Source: Promethearchaeota archaeon (GTDB lineage: Archaea; Asgardarchaeota; Lokiarchaeia; Sigyniarchaeales; SOKP01). Taken from it: a DNA stretch of 64,000 bases. The stretch lies in the NCBI GenBank assembly GCA_020343655.1, contig CP070805.1:1742458-1806457 (forward strand). The letters are read 5' to 3'. How positions within the stretch are numbered: position 1 is the stretch's first letter; each line of letters starts with the position of its first letter. The translations under genes and the position numbers were made by a program. The notes below the pieces were generated by a model. The model had not been told where the DNA came from. It made no database searches and saw nothing but the letters and a program-made list of their open reading frames with translations. Shown in pieces: positions 5,384-57,307 of this stretch.

Positions 5384-6316
5384 TTACACCATTTCCGGGT
5401 ATAATTTTACAAAATAATTAGTCACGTGACTAGAGGCAAAAATTCCTGCTTCTGTGATTAATCCGTCTATATACCTTCTACTTACTGTTTCAAAAGCTGG
5501 ATTTAGGATTTTTATGTTTTCTGGGGGATTTTCCCATACTTCTTTTGGATCTCTCATTTCAATAGTCTCCAAAATACCAAGATTGGTTTCTGGATTGTAT
5601 TTTAATAATGGAGATGCAACATAAAAAGGTACATGTTCTTCATGGGCTACTAATGCTAAGAGTCTTGATCCTATTTTATTGATAATAGTTCCCTCAGAAG
5701 TTATGCTATCTGCTCCGATTAAGATTAAATCAACTTGAAAATGTCTTACAGCCCATCTCATTGCACTATCGATAACGTGAATGACTTCAATACCCACGTC
5801 TAATAACCTTTGTGCTGTTTTCCTGCCCTGTAATCGAGGTTGAGTTTCGGTATTTATTACCCTGAAATTTTTTCCTTGCTTTCTTGCTTCCATTAAAATA
5901 GCTGTTACTAAAGAAGAGTGACAATGTGTCATCACAACATATTTTCTTTCAGCAGCAGGAATCCGTCGTGCTCCAATTTCCGCAATTTTCTTCTTTGAAT
6001 TTTGAAGCATGTCATAATATTGATTCTTGTATTTATCAATAATATCAGAAATATATTCAACAATAATATTTTCTTTTTCTTGTTCTAATTTATTCATTAT
6101 AAATTTCAAGCCATTTTTCATAGCAGGTTCCGTTGGTCTAGTATCAATTAAAATGTCTTGACCATTGTAAAGAAACTCAAAACATTTTTCAATATTCTCA
6201 CATTTTAATCTTTTGGCATAACTACTTAAAAAATCAATTGCACTAATAGCAATGTTACTAGCACCTTGGATCTCTAAGGATTTAATCTTTTGAGCATCTT
6301 TTAATAGTTGTTTCAT
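5384..6316 (-). CDS. ribose-1,5-bisphosphate isomerase (eIF-2B alpha/beta/delta-like family)
   Basis: 310 aa. The GADSITSEGTIINKIGS motif is typical of the e2b2/MtnA family. It lies convergent with, and 17 nt from, form III rbcL. Confidence 0.8.
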   Translation of the reverse strand: MKQLLKDAQKIKSLEIQGASNIAISAIDFLSSYAKRLKCENIEKCFEFLYNGQDILIDTRPTEPAMKNGLKFIMNKLEQEKENIIVEYISDIIDKYKNQYYDMLQNSKKKIAEIGARRIPAAERKYVVMTHCHSSLVTAILMEARKQGKNFRVINTETQPRLQGRKTAQRLLDVGIEVIHVIDSAMRWAVRHFQVDLILIGADSITSEGTIINKIGSRLLALVAHEEHVPFYVASPLLKYNPETNLGILETIEMRDPKEVWENPPENIKILNPAFETVSRRYIDGLITEAGIFASSHVTNYFVKLYPEMV

Positions 6317-35702: not shown

Positions 35703-35960
35703 AAATATCTTAACTATAAAAAATTAAAAAGGATTTTTAAAGCGACACAAGAATTAGCTTTTATTTTAATAGGAAATGAAATTGACCTGCAAGATACAAG
35801 AGTAGTATTTACCGAAGATGGAAGGGAGCTTGCTAAAAAAATTAATGCAAGTGATTTTTTCGAAACAAGCGCTAAATATGGGGATACAGTTGAATAGACA
35901 TTTAAGAACTTAGTAGATAGAGTTTTGGGAAATTTAGATATTGGAATTGAATTTTTTTAA
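35703..35960 (+). pseudogene. relic of a Ras/Rab-like small GTPase gene (C-terminal half, in-frame TAG at 35895-35897)
   Basis: The frame translates ...ELAFILIGNEIDLQDTRVVFTEDGRELAKKINASDFFETSAKYGDTVE*TFKNLVDRVL. It has G4-like GNEID and G5 ETSAK. The G1-G3 part is absent. Confidence 0.6.
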
Positions 35961-36438: not shown

Positions 36439-36915
36439 ATGTTAGAAGTAATAGAAAGGAAATGGGCTTTAAAATTAACATTAGGAGTTGATATAACACT
36501 TAAAGATATTATTCTCAACGAAATTAAATCTGAGGTTCATCTAATTATGTGGGATATCGTAGGGCAAAATAAGTATGAATTAACATTTAGAATGTTTTTT
36601 CAAGGATCCTCTGGGGCATTACTTATCTATGATATAACACGTTATTCAACCTTTAAACAGATAACATCAAAATGGTTGGGAGATTTCAAGAATTTTGGTA
36701 GATCAGATGGAGTATATATATTGATGGGTAATAAATCAGATTTGAAAGATTCAATTATTGTAGCATATAAAGAAGGAAAAAAGTTATCTGAAGAGATAGA
36801 TGCTGTTGATTTTGGTGAGACTAGCGCAAAATATGGTGAAAATGTTGAAAAAGCATTTAGGAGTTTAGCTACTCTGGTACTGAATAAAAGCGGTACTAAA
36901 ATTAAATTAGATTAA
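36439..36915 (+). CDS. small GTPase paralog lacking the P-loop (G1)
   Basis: Begins at the switch I region (LTLGVD). G3 WDIVGQ, G4 GNKSD and G5 ETSAKYGENVEKAF are present. An in-frame TAA lies 9 nt upstream of the ATG, so no GxxxxGK[ST] can be encoded. Confidence 0.65.
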   Translation: MLEVIERKWALKLTLGVDITLKDIILNEIKSEVHLIMWDIVGQNKYELTFRMFFQGSSGALLIYDITRYSTFKQITSKWLGDFKNFGRSDGVYILMGNKSDLKDSIIVAYKEGKKLSEEIDAVDFGETSAKYGENVEKAFRSLATLVLNKSGTKIKLD

Positions 36916-36962: not shown

Positions 36963-37523
36963 ATGATTGGAGATTATAAAGGATTTGTAAAAAATAAGGT
37001 TGTCGTAGCGCTTCTCCAAGCATATCAGGATACACTTGATTATGATGGGATGAAATCAATCCTAAGAGAAGCAGAGATGTTATATTTAAAGGATATAGGA
37101 GAAGAAGATCCTAATAATACATTAGATTTCTTTTATTTTAAGAAAATCATTTCTGCTCAAAATTGTTTATTATACGATTCTTCCGATCTTCTTTATGAAA
37201 TTGGAAAGAAATTCTCGTTCTATTTATTCCCGTTTGGGAAAAGTTTTAAAGAAAAAATTTATGAAATTAATTCTTCTATTATTACAGATTGGAAAGTTAA
37301 TATAATAGAAAATAACGAAAATGAAATAATTCTTCAAGTACACAGGTGCATCTTCTGTTCGGAGATCGGAGTCCCTTGCACTTTATTTAAAGGATTCTTA
37401 GTTCATTCATTACAAAAATCATTACCTTCAGGACATAGGATTATTTATGAAAGGGATAAAGAAGATGTATATGATCTAAATCATAATAGTTATATTGCAA
37501 AATTGAAAATTGAAAAGTATTAA
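36963..37523 (+). CDS. V4R-like domain protein
   Basis: 186 aa. C-terminal Cys-containing segment HRCIFCSEIGVPCTLFKGFLVHSL resembles the V4R (4-vinyl reductase) core. Confidence 0.5.
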   Translation: MIGDYKGFVKNKVVVALLQAYQDTLDYDGMKSILREAEMLYLKDIGEEDPNNTLDFFYFKKIISAQNCLLYDSSDLLYEIGKKFSFYLFPFGKSFKEKIYEINSSIITDWKVNIIENNENEIILQVHRCIFCSEIGVPCTLFKGFLVHSLQKSLPSGHRIIYERDKEDVYDLNHNSYIAKLKIEKY

Positions 37524-37607
37524 ATACTTATATTATCGAAAATTATATTGTAAGTTATTGATGAAGAAATCCTTATAAATACTTACAACAAAATATTAAA
37601 TTGCATA

Positions 37608-38162
37608 ATGACAATAGAAGATGCTAAAGATTTGCGAGAATTCGTTTTTAAAATAACAATTCTTGGAGATGCAGCGGTAGGCAAAACTTCATTAATAAAC
37701 CAATTTGTAGAAGGTTCATTTCAAGAAGATTACAAACCTACATTGGGTGCTAATATTGTCCGAAAAGATGTAAATTTCGATAATACAAGAGTTAGATTAA
37801 TCATGTGGGATTTAGCGGGCCAAGAGAAATATCGAGTGGTTCGTAGTATGTACTTTCAGGGGTGTGAAGGAGCTCTACTTGTCTATGATGTTACTCGATA
37901 TCATACCTTAGAGAGTATAAATTCTAAGTGGTTAAGAGACTTTAAGAAACATGTAAAAAAGAAAGGGGCGTATATATTAATTGGTAACAAAATTGATTTA
38001 AAAGATCAGAGAGTAATACCTACAGAGAGAGGAAAAGAATTAGCCGCAAAAATCAAAGCTAGTCATTTTATTGAAACGAGTGCAAAGCTCGGAGAAAATA
38101 TCGAAGAAGCTTTTTCTCTTCTTGTGAATCAAATTTTAAGTAATCATGGAGTAGATATTTAA
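37608..38162 (+). CDS. Ras/Rab-like small GTPase
   Basis: G1 GDAAVGKTS, switch I PTLG, G3 WDLAGQE, G4 GNKIDL, G5 ETSAKLGENIEEAF. Confidence 0.88.
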   Translation: MTIEDAKDLREFVFKITILGDAAVGKTSLINQFVEGSFQEDYKPTLGANIVRKDVNFDNTRVRLIMWDLAGQEKYRVVRSMYFQGCEGALLVYDVTRYHTLESINSKWLRDFKKHVKKKGAYILIGNKIDLKDQRVIPTERGKELAAKIKASHFIETSAKLGENIEEAFSLLVNQILSNHGVDI

Positions 38163-43161: not shown

Positions 43162-43797
43162 ATGCCTACAGGGATCTTTCTAATTCGTTGGGATGAGGTT
43201 GAAGGAGGTAAAATCTATTTAAAATACCCAGAAAATCTAGAAATCCCGAATCCAGTAGTGCAACAAATAACAATATCGCATAACTTTACGGAATCTTATA
43301 TTATTACAGAAGAGAAGAACTGGAATTCTGTATCTTATTATAATGAAAATAAGGAAATGATTATCGTTCTAGTTTTAAGTAGGTACGATGATGGTAATGA
43401 TTATTTAGAAATTCTCGAAAAATTTAATAAAGAAATTGATAAAGAAACGGAACATGAGAAAATAAAAGAACATTTAGAAACCATGTTTCATATTAGTTTA
43501 GATGCCTTCCGTACCACTGATGAAGTAATAACAAAATTAAGCAATGAAGTTGCATATTTAAAGACAAAAGAGTATGATTATGAAGTAAAATTCGATTTTA
43601 TTACAAAATTGAATCATTTGTCTGTAAAAAGTAAAATCCTATTTTTATTAACGATAAATGATTATCTTACTCTTAAAGATTTTGAGAAATCAATAAAAAC
43701 AAGTAAAAAGTGGTTATTTAATGTCCTTGAAACATTGATAAAAAATGAAGTTGTTGGATACAACTCTAAGAAAAATATTTATTATTTGAATGTATGA
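43162..43797 (+). CDS. hypothetical protein, N-terminal alpha/beta (longin-like?) region plus C-terminal winged-helix
   Basis: 211 aa. C-terminal SKILFLLTINDYLTLKDFEKSIKTSKKWLFNVLETLIKNEVV looks like a wHTH. The stop overlaps the acyP start (ATGA). Confidence 0.4.
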   Translation: MPTGIFLIRWDEVEGGKIYLKYPENLEIPNPVVQQITISHNFTESYIITEEKNWNSVSYYNENKEMIIVLVLSRYDDGNDYLEILEKFNKEIDKETEHEKIKEHLETMFHISLDAFRTTDEVITKLSNEVAYLKTKEYDYEVKFDFITKLNHLSVKSKILFLLTINDYLTLKDFEKSIKTSKKWLFNVLETLIKNEVVGYNSKKNIYYLNV

Positions 43798-44698: not shown

Positions 44699-45382
44699 TT
44701 AAATAAAGGTAATATCTTGATATTCAGAATCTCCAATATCTTTTTTAGCTACACCTAAATCTCTAACTTGTTGATTTAATTTCAAAACAGCCTCCCTTAC
44801 AATTTCTTTTTGTTTTGCACCAGTGCAAACTATGCGTCCTGTGCTGAATATTAGAAAAACTGTCTTAGGATCTTGCATTCTATAAATAAGTCCAGGGAAC
44901 ACTTCTGGTTCATACATGGCATATTCCATCACGATTGCAGCCATGTTTAAGTCAATGTTGGTATGAAGATCACCCGAAGCTACGATATTTTGAATCGTAA
45001 TTTCTGGATTGGATAATTTTATTCCTGCTTTTCTAATGTTTTTTACTACCTTATCTACAACCCGTTCTGCTTCTGCTGCTTGTCTAAGACCTGTAACAAC
45101 CATTTTTCCAGTTGAAAAAATTAAAATAGTAGCACGTGGCTTTTCAATTCGCATTACGAGACCAGGGAACCGTTCTGGATTATACTCTACCTCTGCATGT
45201 CGTCTTGCTATTTGATTTAAATCAATTTTTTCTGTAATCTCTACTGTTACTGTTGCGACTACGTTTTCGATTTTATAATCTAAATCAGTTTCATAATCAT
45301 ATTCTCCTTCTTCCCCTTCTTCTCCTTCCTCCTCTTCTTCTTCAAGTTCGTCATATTCGTCTTCAAATTCTTCTTCTGACAT
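44699..45382 (-). CDS. tbp: TATA-box binding protein with about 37-aa acidic N-terminal extension
   Basis: Two TBP repeats (IENVVATV...FPGLVMRI...ILIFSTGKMVVTG and IQNIVASGDL...FPGLIYRM...FLIFSTGRIVCTGAK), preceded by MSEEEFEDEYDELEEEEEEGEEGEEGEYDYETD. Confidence 0.92.
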   Translation of the reverse strand: MSEEEFEDEYDELEEEEEEGEEGEEGEYDYETDLDYKIENVVATVTVEITEKIDLNQIARRHAEVEYNPERFPGLVMRIEKPRATILIFSTGKMVVTGLRQAAEAERVVDKVVKNIRKAGIKLSNPEITIQNIVASGDLHTNIDLNMAAIVMEYAMYEPEVFPGLIYRMQDPKTVFLIFSTGRIVCTGAKQKEIVREAVLKLNQQVRDLGVAKKDIGDSEYQDITFI

Positions 45383-45615
45383 GATAATTATGAGTGATAA
45401 TTATGATTAAAAAATTGAAAAATTAAATTATTCTTTATTTCAAGGTTTTTTTGTTAATTTTATTTAAATAAATCTTCCTTTATAAAGGTGGTAGATTTAA
45501 AAAAGATTAGTGCCAAAATCACCGATTTTTAATAGTTATTAAGTTATTTAAAATTCTTTTCTATCTAAAAATTAATAAAGAAAAAGTAATAGACTAAAAA
45601 TCTTTTAAAAAATTT

Positions 45616-46143
45616 CTAAATACTTGAAATCTGATCTAGAATTCTTTTCGTTAATTCTATAAATGCCTCTTCAACATTTTGGCCAGTTTTAGCTGATGTA
45701 ATAATCAATCCCATATTATGTGCATTTGAGTATTCAATTGCTTCATTTTTAGTTATTTTTATTTGGTTTTCTAGATCAGATTTATTCCCAATTAGTATTA
45801 TAGGAGCATCATCTCTTGCATCTTTAAAACTTTGGACCCAATCATCAAGTTTTTCAAAAGTTTTAATTTTAGTTGTATCGTAAACTAATAAAGCTCCATT
45901 AGCACCCTCAAGATAGAGTCTTCTTAATGATTTAAACGATTCTTGTCCTCCGAGATCCCATATTTGAGCAGAAACTTCACCATAGCCTGATATATTCATA
46001 TCCTTCTTTAGAAGGTTAACTCCTAATGTTGATTTGTAATTTTCTCTAAATTTGTTTTCGATCCATCTATAAACCAAAGATGTTTTACCTACATTTGCCT
46101 CTCCAAGAAGTACTATTTTAATAATATATGTTGGTTCGCTCAT
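45616..46143 (-). CDS. Ras/Rab-like small GTPase
   Basis: G1 GEANVGKTS, G3 WDLGGQE, G4 GNKSDL, G5 TSAKTGQNVEEAF. Confidence 0.88.
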   Translation of the reverse strand: MSEPTYIIKIVLLGEANVGKTSLVYRWIENKFRENYKSTLGVNLLKKDMNISGYGEVSAQIWDLGGQESFKSLRRLYLEGANGALLVYDTTKIKTFEKLDDWVQSFKDARDDAPIILIGNKSDLENQIKITKNEAIEYSNAHNMGLIITSAKTGQNVEEAFIELTKRILDQISSI

Positions 46144-46292
46144 TGTTAATCATACAATATAAAACATACAATTTTATTTTATATTCTAAGTATAGTTTAT
46201 AATTATTAATAATTTTCTAATAACACTTCAAAATTAAAAATTAACCTTTTAATTAAGTAAAAAAATTACTAATGAAAAAATTGTAATGATTA

Positions 46293-46772
46293 TTAGTCTT
46301 TTTGGAATACGAGCATAAATTCACAATAATTCTGCCCTGTTTGTAGACTACATCCAAGTTCTTGAGCAAAACAATGACGATCACTTAATTTTTCTACAAC
46401 TCCTGCTAATAATCCAGCTTCAAATGAACAAAAGCTTCCTGATGTTTTAATTCCTTTTTTTATTAAATCTTTTATAGAAGAATGATCTTTTAGTTTTAAT
46501 TGTAATATTTCTTCTGTACTTTCAGTTATTTCAGCTGAACCAAGATTAAATTCAGCAATAATTCGTTTTAATTCATCTGGAATTTGAGATATATCTTTAA
46601 CTGGTTTAATTTTTAAGATAGTTCCTAGTTCATGTCCTAAATAGTAAAAAATCGCTTCTAGTTGGTGACCTAGAGCTAATAGAGCCCCAACTTTCATATC
46701 TCCTATAGATTTGCCATCTTTTAAATTCTTTCTCATCTGAGCTAGAATTTTGGAGAGTAATTGTCTATCCAT
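46293..46772 (-). CDS. V4R domain protein
   Basis: 159 aa. C-terminal SGSFCSFEAGLLAGVVEKLSDRHCFAQELGCSLQTGQNYCEFMLVF fits the V4R Cys pattern. Confidence 0.65.
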   Translation of the reverse strand: MDRQLLSKILAQMRKNLKDGKSIGDMKVGALLALGHQLEAIFYYLGHELGTILKIKPVKDISQIPDELKRIIAEFNLGSAEITESTEEILQLKLKDHSSIKDLIKKGIKTSGSFCSFEAGLLAGVVEKLSDRHCFAQELGCSLQTGQNYCEFMLVFQKD

Positions 46773-46827
46773 TAATTTTCACTTTATTTTTATTTTTTTA
46801 TAAATTTTATTTATCTTTATTTAAAAA

Positions 46828-47127
46828 TTATATTTTAACTGAAGATATAAACGCATAAAGAATCGCATCTATAATTTCTTCTTCTTGTATATTTAGAGAA
46901 AGTCTTTTATCTGCTATAATTAAAGTGGGAACTGAAGTGATACGATACTCTTGTGTAAACTGACGATTATCTTCCAAGTCAATCGAAATTTTTTCTATTC
47001 TCAATTTTTTTCCGAACAGGGATATATTTATTCTTTTTAACATATCTTCTACTGGTTTGCAAGGTGCACAATGATTTGAAGAGAAAAATAAAATTTTGGG
47101 ATATCCTTGATTGATATCATCATACAT
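46828..47127 (-). CDS. thioredoxin-like protein
   Basis: 99 aa. CAPC active-site-like motif after a beta strand (ILFFSSNHCAPCKP) and a cis-Pro-like SVPTLII. Confidence 0.6.
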   Translation of the reverse strand: MYDDINQGYPKILFFSSNHCAPCKPVEDMLKRINISLFGKKLRIEKISIDLEDNRQFTQEYRITSVPTLIIADKRLSLNIQEEEIIDAILYAFISSVKI

Positions 47128-47130
47128 TTT

Positions 47131-47670
47131 CTATTCTTCTTTATATTTGTAGTATAATTCTTTTATAATTGCTTGGAATGCTTCATACACTCCACTTCCT
47201 GTCTTCGCACTTGTCTTATAATATCCAAGGAAACCTCTATCTTCAACTATTTCTTTTACCATTTCATCATCTAAATCTTTTTCATCAACCAAATCAGTTT
47301 TATTACCAAACAAAACAATCGGTAGATCTCCTGTGTATTTTTTAATATCTTCATGCCATTCCTCTATATGATTAAAGCTATCATCATCAGTATGCGAAAA
47401 AACTATAATTGCTGCCTTACTACCCTTATAGAAGGTAGGACGCATGAAATCGAATTCTCGTTGACCAGCAATATCCCAAAAAAATAATTTGCAATTATCT
47501 CCCTCAATTTCTTCATCATATTTCGAAAACTGGGCCCCTAACGTCTTAATATAATCCTTCTGAAAACTACCTTGAGTATATTTTTTAATTAAGGAAGTTT
47601 TCCCTACTGCCCCATCACCAATTACAGTTATTTTAAATACGAATCCTTTAGTAACATCATCCTTTCCCAT
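47131..47670 (-). CDS. Ras/Rab-like small GTPase
   Basis: G1 GDGAVGKTS, G3 WDIAGQREF, G4 GNKTDL, G5 TSAKTGSGVYEAF. Confidence 0.88.
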   Translation of the reverse strand: MGKDDVTKGFVFKITVIGDGAVGKTSLIKKYTQGSFQKDYIKTLGAQFSKYDEEIEGDNCKLFFWDIAGQREFDFMRPTFYKGSKAAIIVFSHTDDDSFNHIEEWHEDIKKYTGDLPIVLFGNKTDLVDEKDLDDEMVKEIVEDRGFLGYYKTSAKTGSGVYEAFQAIIKELYYKYKEE

Positions 47671-47820
47671 TTAAATCACTTTAATGGTTTTTTTAGTTCA
47701 ATTCTGTTATTAATGCAATATATTTCAAAAGTATACAAATATTATTTTTTTATTTATTTTTATTTGTTATTAATTTATAATAATAATAACAACTCGCTTT
47801 AAAATTTTACATTGAGTTAG

Positions 47821-48267
47821 ATGGTTCAAGATCCAAACAATATGATGTTTTGTGAAAGTTGTAGGATGAATGTTTATCCAACAAGACAGAGATTTAATAT
47901 TAAAATATTTGGAATTTTTGCTATTCTTATGCTGAGTTTATTTATCTCAATTACTATCGTTTCTTTCTCAATTTTTTCAGAAATTTTTCTAATTATTTTT
48001 ATCATGTGGGGATTTATGATACTCAATCCATATCTTTTATATTACGGATTACAGAAAAAGCAACATTGTCCGAGATGCCTTAAAAGAACTGTTGAGAAGA
48101 ACTTAGAATATAAACCTTTTGGAGTTAAAGAACCAGAAATTTATAAAATTTTAGCCCCTAGTAAAACATCTTTAATAATCTGGCACTGTCCATATTGTGG
48201 TACTCCATTAAGTGAACGAGCAAAATTTTGCAGGTCATGTGGGAAAAAATTTGAAATTCAAAGGTAA
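47821..48267 (+). CDS. membrane protein with N- and C-terminal zinc ribbons
   Basis: CESC at the N-terminus, two TM helices, then CPRC...CPYC...CRSC. Confidence 0.5.
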   Translation: MVQDPNNMMFCESCRMNVYPTRQRFNIKIFGIFAILMLSLFISITIVSFSIFSEIFLIIFIMWGFMILNPYLLYYGLQKKQHCPRCLKRTVEKNLEYKPFGVKEPEIYKILAPSKTSLIIWHCPYCGTPLSERAKFCRSCGKKFEIQR

Positions 48268-54900: not shown

Positions 54901-55995
54901 TTAATCTTTACTCCAAAATTCATCAGGAGTTAAGAATTTTGAGATTTTTGAAAAAGGACATACCGCAATACAGTTTCCACAATCACTGGAATTTTCAACC
55001 CAGAATTCAAAACACTTTTCTACGTCAACATAATATTTCTTCACTCCTGGATTGTTAGAAATCGAAAAGGGTTTAAAAGTAGGGTTTGATTCTCTTGTAA
55101 TGGCATCGTTTTCACAAGCTTCAGCACATTTGGAACAATTCTTACAGAAGTTTTTAACTTTCTCAATGAATCCTTGGTTTGGTTCATCAGAAATTATTGG
55201 TAAATCTGTAAAAACCTTGCATATTCGCACACGTGGACCAAATTCAGGAGTAAGTAGTAATCCATTCCTACCTAAAGCGCCGAGTCCCGCATCAATTGCT
55301 AACGGTATACTAAGAGCGGTATCATTACCACATTGAATAGCCCTATATCCTAAATTTCTTATAAACTCTCCTAAACATGAGATAATAAACGCCATTTTTG
55401 AATATGCAATTGCTGTGGCTGCAGCTGCTGGTTGAGTTGGTGCAGTCGAAATTGCTTCTTCATCCATTTCAACGCCCATCACTATCACTTTATTTATTCC
55501 ATCTGGTAATTCTATAGGTTGATCATATATTGAATCGGGGGCTATTCCACCACGAACTTCCTTTTTAGCCTTGGCTTCACTAACATCGTTGGGTCTCATA
55601 AATCCTGTTTTATAGATCCATTTATCATTAACATCTGCGATACCCACTAAAGATGCCCCATATAATTTTGCCACCTTTTTTATTTTCTTCGTAAAATTTT
55701 CAATATCTTCTATTTTGTATTTAGATTTCATCCAATTTACACCGTAACCAATATCCATCAAGCTTTTCCTTTCCCATTTGAAAGCATAAGGAAATCTTTC
55801 ATAAACAGTCCAACCTGCCGCCACTAAAGCAAAATCTATCCTTGAATAACCATCTTTTTTTGATTCGATATGCCCCTCAAGATTCGTATCAAGCATTTGT
55901 TGGTAAGTTGGTAAAGTATTATCCCACAATCTTCTAAACAACATATTATTTTTCTGCTTAAAACGCTTGTAAACTGTATTATCTATTTCATACAT
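54901..55995 (-). CDS. reductive dehalogenase / epoxyqueuosine reductase-like Fe-S protein
   Basis: Two C-terminal ferredoxin-type motifs, CKNCSKCAEAC and CGNCIAVCP. 364 aa with no signal or TAT motif. Confidence 0.55.
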   Translation of the reverse strand: MYEIDNTVYKRFKQKNNMLFRRLWDNTLPTYQQMLDTNLEGHIESKKDGYSRIDFALVAAGWTVYERFPYAFKWERKSLMDIGYGVNWMKSKYKIEDIENFTKKIKKVAKLYGASLVGIADVNDKWIYKTGFMRPNDVSEAKAKKEVRGGIAPDSIYDQPIELPDGINKVIVMGVEMDEEAISTAPTQPAAAATAIAYSKMAFIISCLGEFIRNLGYRAIQCGNDTALSIPLAIDAGLGALGRNGLLLTPEFGPRVRICKVFTDLPIISDEPNQGFIEKVKNFCKNCSKCAEACENDAITRESNPTFKPFSISNNPGVKKYYVDVEKCFEFWVENSSDCGNCIAVCPFSKISKFLTPDEFWSKD

Positions 55996-56776: not shown

Positions 56777-57307
56777 TTGTATGATGCAACATATAAAATT
56801 GTGATTTTCGGAGATGCTGGTTGTGGCAAAACAACTTTAACTCAGAGATTTTTAACTAATTTATTTAAGTCAGATTCTAAAATGACTATTGGTGTTGATT
56901 TCGAAGTAAAAAGTCTGGAAATCAATGGAAAAAAAATAAAACTTCAAATTTGGGATTTTGGTGGGGAAGAACGATTTAGATTTTTATTACCAACATATGT
57001 TAGAGGAGCTAATGGAGCCCTTTTTATGTATGATGTTACGAATTATAGTTCACTTGCTCATATAGATGATTGGCTTATGGTGATTAGAAAAGAACTTAGA
57101 GCTGAAGATCAATTTCCTATTATTGTTGTCGGAGGAAAGGCAGATCTTGTAAACGATCGTGAAGTTACAGGAGATGAAGGTATTAATATTGCAAAGTCAA
57201 GAGCAGTAAATGGTTTTATTGAATGTAGTTCGAAAACTGGTGAGAATGTTGAAGAGACTTTTGAAGCTTTATCACGGTTAATGATGCAAAAGTCTAATTT
57301 ACTTTGA
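56777..57307 (+). CDS. Ras/Rab-like small GTPase
   Basis: G1 GDAGCGKTT, G3 WDFGGEERF, G4 variant GGKADL, G5 CSSKTGENVEETF; TTG start. Confidence 0.85.
   Translation: MYDATYKIVIFGDAGCGKTTLTQRFLTNLFKSDSKMTIGVDFEVKSLEINGKKIKLQIWDFGGEERFRFLLPTYVRGANGALFMYDVTNYSSLAHIDDWLMVIRKELRAEDQFPIIVVGGKADLVNDREVTGDEGINIAKSRAVNGFIECSSKTGENVEETFEALSRLMMQKSNLL

Follow-up and report, generated by a model that had tools for sequence, protein, structure and literature searches.

The 64,000-nucleotide stretch analysed here (the window) comes from the genome of a Promethearchaeota archaeon (Lokiarchaeia; contig CP070805.1) and carries on its minus strand a group of four genes, locus B. They encode a Rab-like small GTPase (G_B1), a thioredoxin-fold protein (Trx), a stand-alone protein of the V4R/Bet3 fold superfamily (V4R_B) and a second Rab-like GTPase (G_B2). 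The functional unit consists of the first three genes, G_B1, Trx and V4R_B (the trio), and not of all four. The features of the locus are:

47131-47670 (-): G_B1, Rab-like small GTPase of 179 aa, first gene of the trio (Pfam Ras)
46828-47127 (-): Trx, thioredoxin-fold protein of 99 aa with CAPC motif and VPT cis-Pro loop (Pfam Thioredoxin_2 and Thioredoxin)
46293-46772 (-): V4R_B, stand-alone MsvR-type V4R sensor domain of 159 aa, V4R/Bet3 fold superfamily (profile search, AlphaFold, NCBIfam)
45616-46143 (-): G_B2, second Rab-like GTPase, 175 aa, with its own upstream region (Pfam Ras)
47671..47760 (-): 5' region of the trio, presumed promoter and leader (read from the sequence and from its recurrence upstream of G_B1 orthologs)
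~47721-47746 (-): conserved element AATAATATTTGTATACTTTTGAAATA, roughly -75 to -50 from the G_B1 ATG, recurring in related loci
47675-47680 (-): Shine-Dalgarno-like AGTGAT before G_B1 (read from the sequence)

An earlier interpretation made without database searches (hereafter the sequence-only reading) had placed the four open reading frames on the minus strand at these positions, and both its coordinates and its gaps were confirmed: 3 nt separate G_B1 from Trx, 55 nt Trx from V4R_B and 149 nt V4R_B from G_B2. Among related loci the median gaps are 3 nt (G_B1-Trx), 53 nt (Trx-V4R) and 167 nt (V4R-G_B2), followed by 217 nt between G_B2 and a gene for TBP. The element AATAATATTTGTATACTTTTGAAATA and a GAGTGAT motif recur upstream of the G_B1 orthologs in related loci, where Shine-Dalgarno-like motifs are conserved ahead of both G_B1 and V4R; in the window the motif AGTGAAA precedes the V4R_B start codon. 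The trio is probably carried on one transcript, and the region 47671..47760 is presumed to act as its promoter and leader.

Both proteins that the sequence-only reading had called small GTPases are strong matches to the Pfam family Ras (E 7e-45 for G_B1, E 2e-47 for G_B2). The motifs G1 to G5 of G_B1, read from its sequence, are intact (GDGAVGKT, T43, DIAGQ, NKTD and SAK). Its best sequence matches in the PDB are Rab23, Rab21, Rab14 and Rab1 and also the Thorarchaeota Rab 7ezb; those of G_B2 are similar. A C-terminal prenylation cysteine is missing from both proteins, G_B1 ending in ...YYKYKEE and G_B2 in ...DQISSI, as it is from other Asgard Rab-like proteins (PMC10933270), and the term 'Rab-like' is therefore more apt than 'Rab'. 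The switch II segment of G_B1, MRPTFYKGSKAAIIVFS, is nearly invariant among 82 orthologs. In a neighbour-joining tree, all GTPases linked to Trx and V4R clustered in one clade with a bootstrap support of 100/100, apart from the proteins of the G_B2 type, which formed a separate clade with equal support (100/100).

The second protein of the trio passes the Pfam cut-offs for Thioredoxin_2 (33.9 bits, cut-off 27) and Thioredoxin (29.8 bits, cut-off 23.5). Its CAPC aligns with the CGPC of solved thioredoxins and its VPT with their IPT cis-Pro loop, in agreement with the CAPC thioredoxin-like gene of the sequence-only reading. The 99-aa protein is classified on these alignments as a thioredoxin-fold protein and a putative disulfide reductase. 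At the DNA level, CxPC was present in 86/86 Trx orthologs. A thioredoxin reductase was not identified among the open reading frames of the window that were scanned. In three related loci (L061, L066 and L083; loci are designated here by L numbers) the Trx frame, including its CGPC (at about positions 5700-5760), extends further upstream, with no ATG, GTG or TTG after the preceding in-frame TGA, which suggests a non-canonical start, stop-codon readthrough or an assembly error.

V4R_B belongs to a superfamily whose homology to Bet3, which is part of the core of the TRAPP exchange factors for Rab GTPases, was established by Podar et al. (2008; PMC2253512), and Tran et al. ascribed 'more distant superfamily V4R proteins' to Loki (PMC10933270). 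A profile of the V4R_B family matched only two sequences of the PDB, the archaeal V4R protein MJ1460 over the full length (E 2e-13) and YslB (E 4e-6). The AlphaFold model of V4R_B (predicted local distance difference test score, pLDDT, 87.9; predicted template modelling score, pTM, 0.76) shows the two-layer alpha/beta V4R fold, with four helices and a four-stranded sheet. In a Foldseek comparison of this model with the PDB, MJ1460 (2osd/2oso) ranked first, followed by YslB (3njc), MopR/PoxR/DmpR and Bet3/TRAPPC3. The probability was 1.0 for MJ1460, YslB and the MopR/PoxR/DmpR group, with template modelling (TM) scores of 0.57-0.63 to the latter three, and also 1.0 for the Bet3-type structures 2j3w_E, 1sz7, 1wc8, 6aq3, 7b6d and the Thorarchaeota TRAPPC3 7yh3 (E ~1e-5, TM 0.5-0.6). 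The sole NCBIfam match of V4R_B was MsvR (methanogen-specific V4R-domain regulator, NF053755, E 2e-9), covering profile positions 118-235 of 236, that is, the V4R half; divergent members of the V4R_B family and the fusion proteins described below match the same family. No helix-turn-helix (HTH) domain was found in V4R_B with Pfam or NCBIfam, and positions 1-117 of the MsvR profile were unmatched. Since the HTH is missing and the score lies under the equivalog cut-off, V4R_B represents only an MsvR-type sensor domain and not MsvR itself; lacking the ArsR-type HTH, it cannot be a DNA-binding regulator of the MsvR type. A match of V4R_B to the Pfam family TRAPP was not obtained. Judged by sequence and predicted structure, V4R_B is closer to the prokaryotic V4R proteins MJ1460 and MsvR than to Bet3.

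Three cysteines and a glutamate are conserved in V4R_B: C115 in 87/87 orthologs, C141 and C150 each in 84/87, and a near-invariant E138. In an alignment with a full-length MsvR-like HTH-V4R protein (P0143) the three cysteines fall on its three V4R cysteines, and the intervals between them, 26 and 9 residues, are close to the 26 and 8 residues that separate C206, C232 and C240 of MaMsvR (PMC3729527). In MaMsvR these cysteines govern redox-dependent DNA binding, and oxidative-stress genes are under the control of MsvR (PMC3729527). According to PMC7278568, which cites Sheehan et al. 2015, the thiols of MsvR are oxidised by H2O2 and re-reduced by the NADPH-thioredoxin reductase-thioredoxin system. 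The C...E...C...C pattern of V4R_B also matches the zinc ligands of DmpR (Cys151/Glu172/Cys177/Cys185; PMC7264223), and a metal site is predicted from the sequence. Zinc is likewise bound through cysteines by the Thorarchaeota TRAPPC3 (PMC10933270).

Orthologs of the window genes were mapped on 80 loci from species-level genomes, all of them Promethearchaeota except for evident mislabels. Many metagenome-assembled genomes (MAGs) with fully syntenic Loki-type orthologs of 75-94% identity are labelled Hermodarchaeota, Hodarchaeota, Thorarchaeota or Odinarchaeota (L006, L013, L015, L018, L027, L038, L044, L060, L068 and others), and the label of L060 reads Nanopelagicaceae bacterium; these discordant labels are probably taxonomic mislabels or binning errors.

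G_B1, Trx and V4R lie side by side, co-oriented and in an unchanged order, in every one of the 80 genome loci with sufficient flank. Synteny among such close genomes does not by itself prove coupling, since housekeeping genes of no relation to the trio (M29 peptidase, CinA, acylphosphatase and KTI12) are equally syntenic over the same loci, and the search was therefore extended to divergent loci. An exhaustive search found the V4R_B family to be narrow: clustered at 50%, it has 36 representatives. On divergent metagenomic contigs the trio is kept together at identities of 38-50% for V4R, 44-57% for Trx and 51-59% for the GTPase. The order GTPase-Trx-V4R is found in L087, L092, L093, L095-L098 and L104, whereas L101-L103 have the permuted order GTPase-V4R-Trx; in L094 the GTPase lies on the opposite strand, and the flanks are unrelated in L094, L096, L098 and L102. 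This linkage outlasts both rearrangement and change of context, which argues for selection for the trio, and the arrangement is far beyond chance. The position of the Trx-like gene, whose conservation the sequence-only reading had proposed to examine, is thus kept across the 80 loci and the divergent contigs, with the permuted order in L101-L103. The trio proteins are also more conserved, with mean distances of 0.24-0.27 compared with 0.37-0.44 for M29, CinA and G_B2. Functional coupling had been proposed for all four genes. It is supported at least for G_B1, Trx and V4R, whose linkage survives permutation, strand flip and exchange of the flanks; G_B2 is only loosely attached.

A second line of evidence comes from the distant relatives of V4R_B. 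Three cluster representatives (P0139, P0278 and P0305) are proteins of ~500 aa in which an N-terminal thioredoxin/glutaredoxin-like domain precedes two V4R domains; their CxxC motifs are CYAC, CVHC and CGPC. The 54 clusters of this Trx-V4R-V4R family come from Heimdallarchaeota, Thorarchaeota, 'Asgard group' MAGs and a single Promethearchaeota MAG, and they tie Trx to V4R independently of the trio. The two tandem V4R domains possibly form an intramolecular pseudo-dimer. In L088, L089, L105 and L106 a peroxiredoxin gene directly follows or overlaps the fusion gene. No GTPase neighbour was found at any fusion locus examined. Since the fusions are Asgard-wide and occur without a GTPase neighbour, Trx-V4R is seen as the older pairing, to which the GTPase was added in the Loki lineage. 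In a Heimdallarchaeaceae lineage (L107:2472-5557 and L108:1007-4107), two tandem Snf7 (ESCRT-III) genes precede the fusion gene by ~250 nt on the same strand, and an archease gene comes after it. These Snf7 neighbours, observed in one lineage only, hint at a tie of V4R to membrane remodelling.

G_B2 behaves differently from the trio. It follows V4R on the same strand in the window-like clade and is inverted as a block with the TBP gene in a sister clade; its link to the trio is loose because of this block flip and the wide gaps on both sides. The gene order in L097, Roadblock/LC7, G_B2-like, G_B1-like, Trx and V4R, places the G_B2 type upstream of the trio. The G_B2 type is paired there with a classical MglB-like partner and the G_B1 type with Trx-V4R. 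G_B2 is absent from the flanks in L094, L096, L098 and L102. The sequence-only reading had seen in locus B a repetition of a GTPase-V4R-GTPase unit of another part of the window, locus A. This did not stand, as G_B2 lies behind a median gap of 167 nt, flips together with TBP and is Roadblock-paired upstream of the trio in L097.

Locus A comprises the following features:

36963..38162 (+): parallel module of locus A, V4R_A then G_A2
36963-37523 (+): V4R_A, H-NOX-like member of the V4R superfamily with a CxxC...C...H signature (AlphaFold, Foldseek)
37608-38162 (+): G_A2, Rab-like GTPase
36439-36915 (+): G_A1, GTPase without P-loop, starting at position 29 of the Ras profile
35742-35927 (+): GTPase remnant, a C-terminus-like fragment upstream of a PCC-domain gene (similarity)

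The AlphaFold model of V4R_A (pLDDT 91) was matched by Foldseek in the order H-NOX (TM ~0.62), YslB, TRAPP and MJ1460, and neither a Pfam or NCBIfam match nor a PDB sequence match was obtained for this protein. The Y-x-S-x-R motif is missing, and C129, C132, C139 and H174 are invariant, which suggests a metal site rather than heme. V4R_A was rejected as a close paralog of V4R_B: the two have no BLAST similarity and an hhalign probability of 31%, and fold alone places V4R_A in the superfamily, nearest to H-NOX. In the neighbour-joining tree G_A1 and G_A2 are sisters with 99/100 bootstrap support, and G_B1 and G_B2 fall into separate clades. A duplication of the whole cassette between the loci was rejected on the pairwise identities and this tree, in which the pairs A1-B1 and A2-B2 were not recovered. 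The GTPase phylogeny, which the sequence-only reading had suggested as a test for such a duplication, speaks against it, G_A1 grouping with G_A2, and the two V4R proteins belong to different subfamilies. G_A1 and G_A2 are tandem paralogs.

In the window genome locus A shows gene decay. Its relatives read GTPase-PCC-GTPase (full length)-V4R_A-GTPase or just V4R_A-GTPase, with L110 and L111 encoding full-length GTPases at both of the decayed positions; the constant core in the relatives is V4R_A, the GTPase (G_A2) and a class I/II aminotransferase. Both loci share the pairing of one Rab-like GTPase with one V4R-superfamily protein, and the pairing in locus A is independent, which strengthens the general theme of V4R-GTPase pairing.

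The reading that we favour, and to which we assign about an even chance of being correct, is that the trio encodes a thiol/zinc sensor of the V4R type, which thioredoxin resets and which is coupled to a dedicated Rab-like GTPase. V4R_B, probably a homodimer like other V4R/TRAPPC3 proteins, would carry a zinc-thiolate centre formed by Cys115, Glu138, Cys141 and Cys150, and by analogy with MsvR and DmpR the oxidation state of this centre would alter the conformation of the protein. The co-encoded Trx would re-reduce the centre and thereby reset the sensor, as the biochemistry of MsvR with thioredoxin and the Trx-V4R-V4R fusions suggest. In place of the DNA-binding output of MsvR, V4R_B may act on G_B1 as an exchange factor, a nucleotide-state-specific binder or an effector, and the cellular redox state would in this way be translated into the on/off state of one specific Rab-like GTPase. 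We infer a contact between V4R_B and G_B1 only from the obligatory gene linkage and from the Bet3/TRAPP precedent. The GTPase-output step is motivated by the 3-nt G_B1-Trx junction together with the persistent linkage, by the near-invariant switch II of G_B1 and by the homology of V4R with Bet3. The suggestion in the sequence-only reading that the V4R cysteines might be redox-controlled gains support from the alignment of C115, C141 and C150 with MsvR (PMC3729527, PMC7278568) and from the fusions, which often have a peroxiredoxin gene next to them.

Several observations weigh against this reading. Scored as a single sequence, V4R_B remains under the Pfam cut-offs for V4R (PF02830, 24.2 bits against 31) and DUF2507 (26.9 bits against 35), and its MsvR score of 37 bits is far under the equivalog cut-off of 220 bits. 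The protein had been called a clear V4R; the call, below the Pfam cut-offs singly, is confirmed by the profile match to MJ1460, the fold found with AlphaFold and Foldseek and the V4R half of the NCBIfam family MsvR. A fourth cysteine, C134, is invariant in the main clade but clade-specific, with Val in its place in L102 and L103. The same cysteines that align with MsvR are structural zinc ligands in DmpR, PoxR and the Thorarchaeota TRAPPC3, without a demonstrated redox role, and cysteines alone therefore do not prove sensing. The fusions without GTPase neighbours indicate that the GTPase link is lineage-specific, and it could be a regulatory add-on. In a mirror-tree test run with the phylogenetic background removed, the trio was not sharply singled out, partial correlations being 0.54-0.69 within the trio and 0.52-0.58 with G_B2. 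A run of five T residues follows the Trx stop codon, and TATA-like strings occur within the 55-nt gap before V4R_B. At ~27% GC such T-runs and TATA-like strings are uninformative; they were found everywhere, and a reading of the intergenic DNA for promoters and terminators gave no clear signal.

V4R_B might instead serve as a ligand sensor or carrier, in which a hydrophobic molecule occupies the cavity, the zinc is structural and ligand occupancy regulates the GTPase, with Trx protecting the zinc site or being unrelated. There are precedents in the phenols bound by DmpR and PoxR and in the palmitate bound by Bet3, and the fold of V4R_B is equally close to the ligand-binding MopR, PoxR and DmpR (TM 0.57-0.63); the C...E...C...C pattern of V4R_B corresponds to the structural zinc site of DmpR (PMC7264223). 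Tran et al. concluded that Asgard TRAPP/V4R proteins probably bind ligands (PMC10933270), and a RAM-domain protein adjoins V4R in L092, L094 and L102. A ligand-sensing role nevertheless leaves unexplained both the obligatory linkage to a CxPC Trx (86/86 orthologs) and the Asgard Trx-V4R-V4R fusions with their downstream peroxiredoxin gene, and the closest curated family of V4R_B is the redox sensor MsvR; we consider this role possible but doubtful. The peroxiredoxin gene beside or overlapping the fusion gene in four loci would also fit a function of Trx and V4R in peroxide detoxification or repair, the GTPase being a co-regulated stress factor without direct contact to V4R. This reading, too, can draw on MsvR, which governs oxidative-stress genes (PMC3729527), and on the fusions without GTPase neighbours. 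It is quite unlikely in our view, since no gene is joined more tightly than the GTPase in Lokiarchaeia (3-nt gap to Trx), where it forms a dedicated orthologous clade and keeps its linkage through rearrangements, and neither the window nor any of the 80 genome loci showed a peroxiredoxin or other detoxification gene beside the trio.

The other two alternatives concern the extent of the unit and the meaning of its conservation. A four-gene cassette GTPase-Trx-V4R-GTPase, duplicating the architecture of locus A and with both GTPases acting on V4R, agrees with the common orientation of all four genes in the window and in the closest clade, with the G_B2-type GTPase near the trio in the divergent L097 and with a V4R-G_B2 partial correlation of 0.58, which is not below some values within the trio. 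The flip of the G_B2-TBP block in the sister clade, the 167-nt median gap and the absence of G_B2 in L094, L096, L098 and L102 contradict it, as does the Roadblock pairing of the G_B2 type in L097. In locus A the upstream GTPases are variable or decayed and G_A1 is the sister of G_A2 (99/100); V4R_A is of another subfamily than V4R_B. Phylogeny and synteny have largely refuted this model, and we regard it as very improbable. Finally, the three genes could be neighbours only through regional conservation among close genomes, without functional coupling, as the synteny of the M29 peptidase, CinA, acylphosphatase and KTI12 genes over the same 80 loci would allow. Such an explanation is barely credible, because it is the trio alone that has been preserved in divergent contigs, where the flanks are unrelated, the order is permuted and a strand flip occurs, and because Trx and V4R are fused in one polypeptide in other Asgard lineages.

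The favoured reading, a redox-controlled V4R sensor with a GTPase output, can be set beside several known systems. MsvR resembles V4R_B in its V4R sensor domain with three aligned cysteines, and its resetting by thioredoxin parallels the Trx co-encoded in the trio (PMC3729527; PMC7278568). In contrast to MsvR, V4R_B has no ArsR-type HTH, its partners are a Rab-like GTPase and a dedicated Trx, and it occurs in Lokiarchaeia and not in methanogens. Bet3/TRAPPC3, including the crystallised Thorarchaeota TRAPPC3 (7YH2/7YH3), shares the fold superfamily (PMC2253512), and the action of TRAPP on Rab GTPases finds a counterpart in the linkage of the V4R_B gene to a Rab-like GTPase. V4R_B is nearer to prokaryotic V4R proteins, however, TRAPP has no Trx partner, and an exchange-factor activity of V4R_B is putative; a gene for a longin (Bet5/Trs23-like) partner was not identified in the trio unit. 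The Asgard Trx-V4R-V4R fusions contain both domain types of the Trx and V4R genes of the window and keep the CxxC and C...E...C...C signatures, but they carry two tandem V4R domains and adjoin no GTPase, having a peroxiredoxin gene or an ESCRT-III pair as neighbours. DmpR, PoxR and MopR share the V4R fold and the Cys/Glu/Cys/Cys pattern of zinc ligands (PMC7264223); there the domain is located N-terminally in phenol-binding sigma-54 activators, whereas V4R_B stands alone, without an AAA+ or DNA-binding output. The pairs of MglA/MglB and of Roadblock or longin proteins with GTPases likewise consist of a small Ras-superfamily GTPase encoded beside a small dimeric regulator, and L097 has such a pair of Roadblock and G_B2 type; in the trio the partner is a V4R-fold protein together with a thioredoxin. 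A full-text literature search for V4R with thioredoxin, small GTPase, Lokiarchaeota and Asgard returned no description of the trio or the fusions. Each part is of a known kind; what is new is the way they are combined and, by implication, a Trx-reset V4R sensor whose output is a GTPase.

Asgard archaea encode dozens of Rab/Ras-like GTPases, and to our knowledge nobody knows which regulators act on which of them. Tran et al. (2024) stated that in MK-D1 the GTPase genes generally share no operon with genes for Roadblock, longin or TRAPPC3 proteins (PMC10933270), and the pairings are therefore hard to predict from the genome layout. The trio is a clear exception, in which one orthologous GTPase clade is obligatorily linked to a protein of the Bet3 superfamily and a Trx, and it offers a well-defined set of two or three small proteins that is amenable to experiment. 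It would extend the MsvR paradigm, the Trx-reset V4R thiol switch having a GTPase output instead of DNA binding, and the fusions show that the coupling of Trx with V4R spans the Asgard archaea. A real contact between V4R and the GTPase would bear directly on the origin of TRAPP-type Rab regulation. We regard it as unlikely, though worth stating, that the trio is a living relative of the step before the coupling of Rab and TRAPP, in which a Bet3-superfamily (V4R) dimer would have direct control over the nucleotide exchange, or the state-specific binding, of its dedicated Rab-like GTPase, with the thiol/zinc redox state of V4R as the gate and the co-encoded Trx resetting it; if true, redox sensing would be an ancestral input to GTPase-controlled remodelling of the membrane or cytoskeleton in the archaeal lineage closest to eukaryotes.

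Further genes were observed around the trio. Divergent from G_B1, at 47821-48267 (+), the window encodes a 148-aa membrane protein with zinc-ribbon motifs; it occurs only in the window-like clade and is therefore not a member of the trio. A stand-alone Lrp/AsnC ligand-binding (RAM) domain protein of ~85 aa adjoins V4R in three divergent loci (L092:1672-1920, +; L094:5404-5676, +; L102:1581-1832, -) and is absent from the window. The 211-aa protein orf211 (43162-43797, +) recurs convergently beside V4R in L087:1972-2619 (-), L092:1968-2618 (-) and L100:986-1471 (-), with 31-36% identity to these counterparts. It was rejected as a longin or Roadblock partner, having zero Pfam and NCBIfam matches and only non-significant winged-helix matches at its C-terminus.

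On the other side of the trio, the pair of G_B2 and then TBP occupies 44699-46143 (-) of the window, and its inversion is seen between two Promethearchaeota clades (L001-L003, L052, L055, L058-L082). In some loci (L058, L065 and L072) TBP is present as a tandem pair. At its N-terminus the protein has an acidic extension of ~40 aa, and its gene has its own strongly conserved promoter-like element, CCTTTATAAAGG, ~100 nt upstream, followed by a conserved leader. For the locus as a whole, an origin in a defence system was rejected: PADLOC gave no meaningful matches, the only one being a marginal P-loop match of G_B2 to LeoA.

In the whole window (1-64000) no Rfam family reached its gathering score and no structured RNA was found. 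No regulator gene can be recognised beside a fifth Rab-like GTPase (56777-57307), which has a protein of the Lin0512 family as its neighbour upstream, and a reductive-dehalogenase-like Fe-S protein is encoded at 54901-55995 (-).

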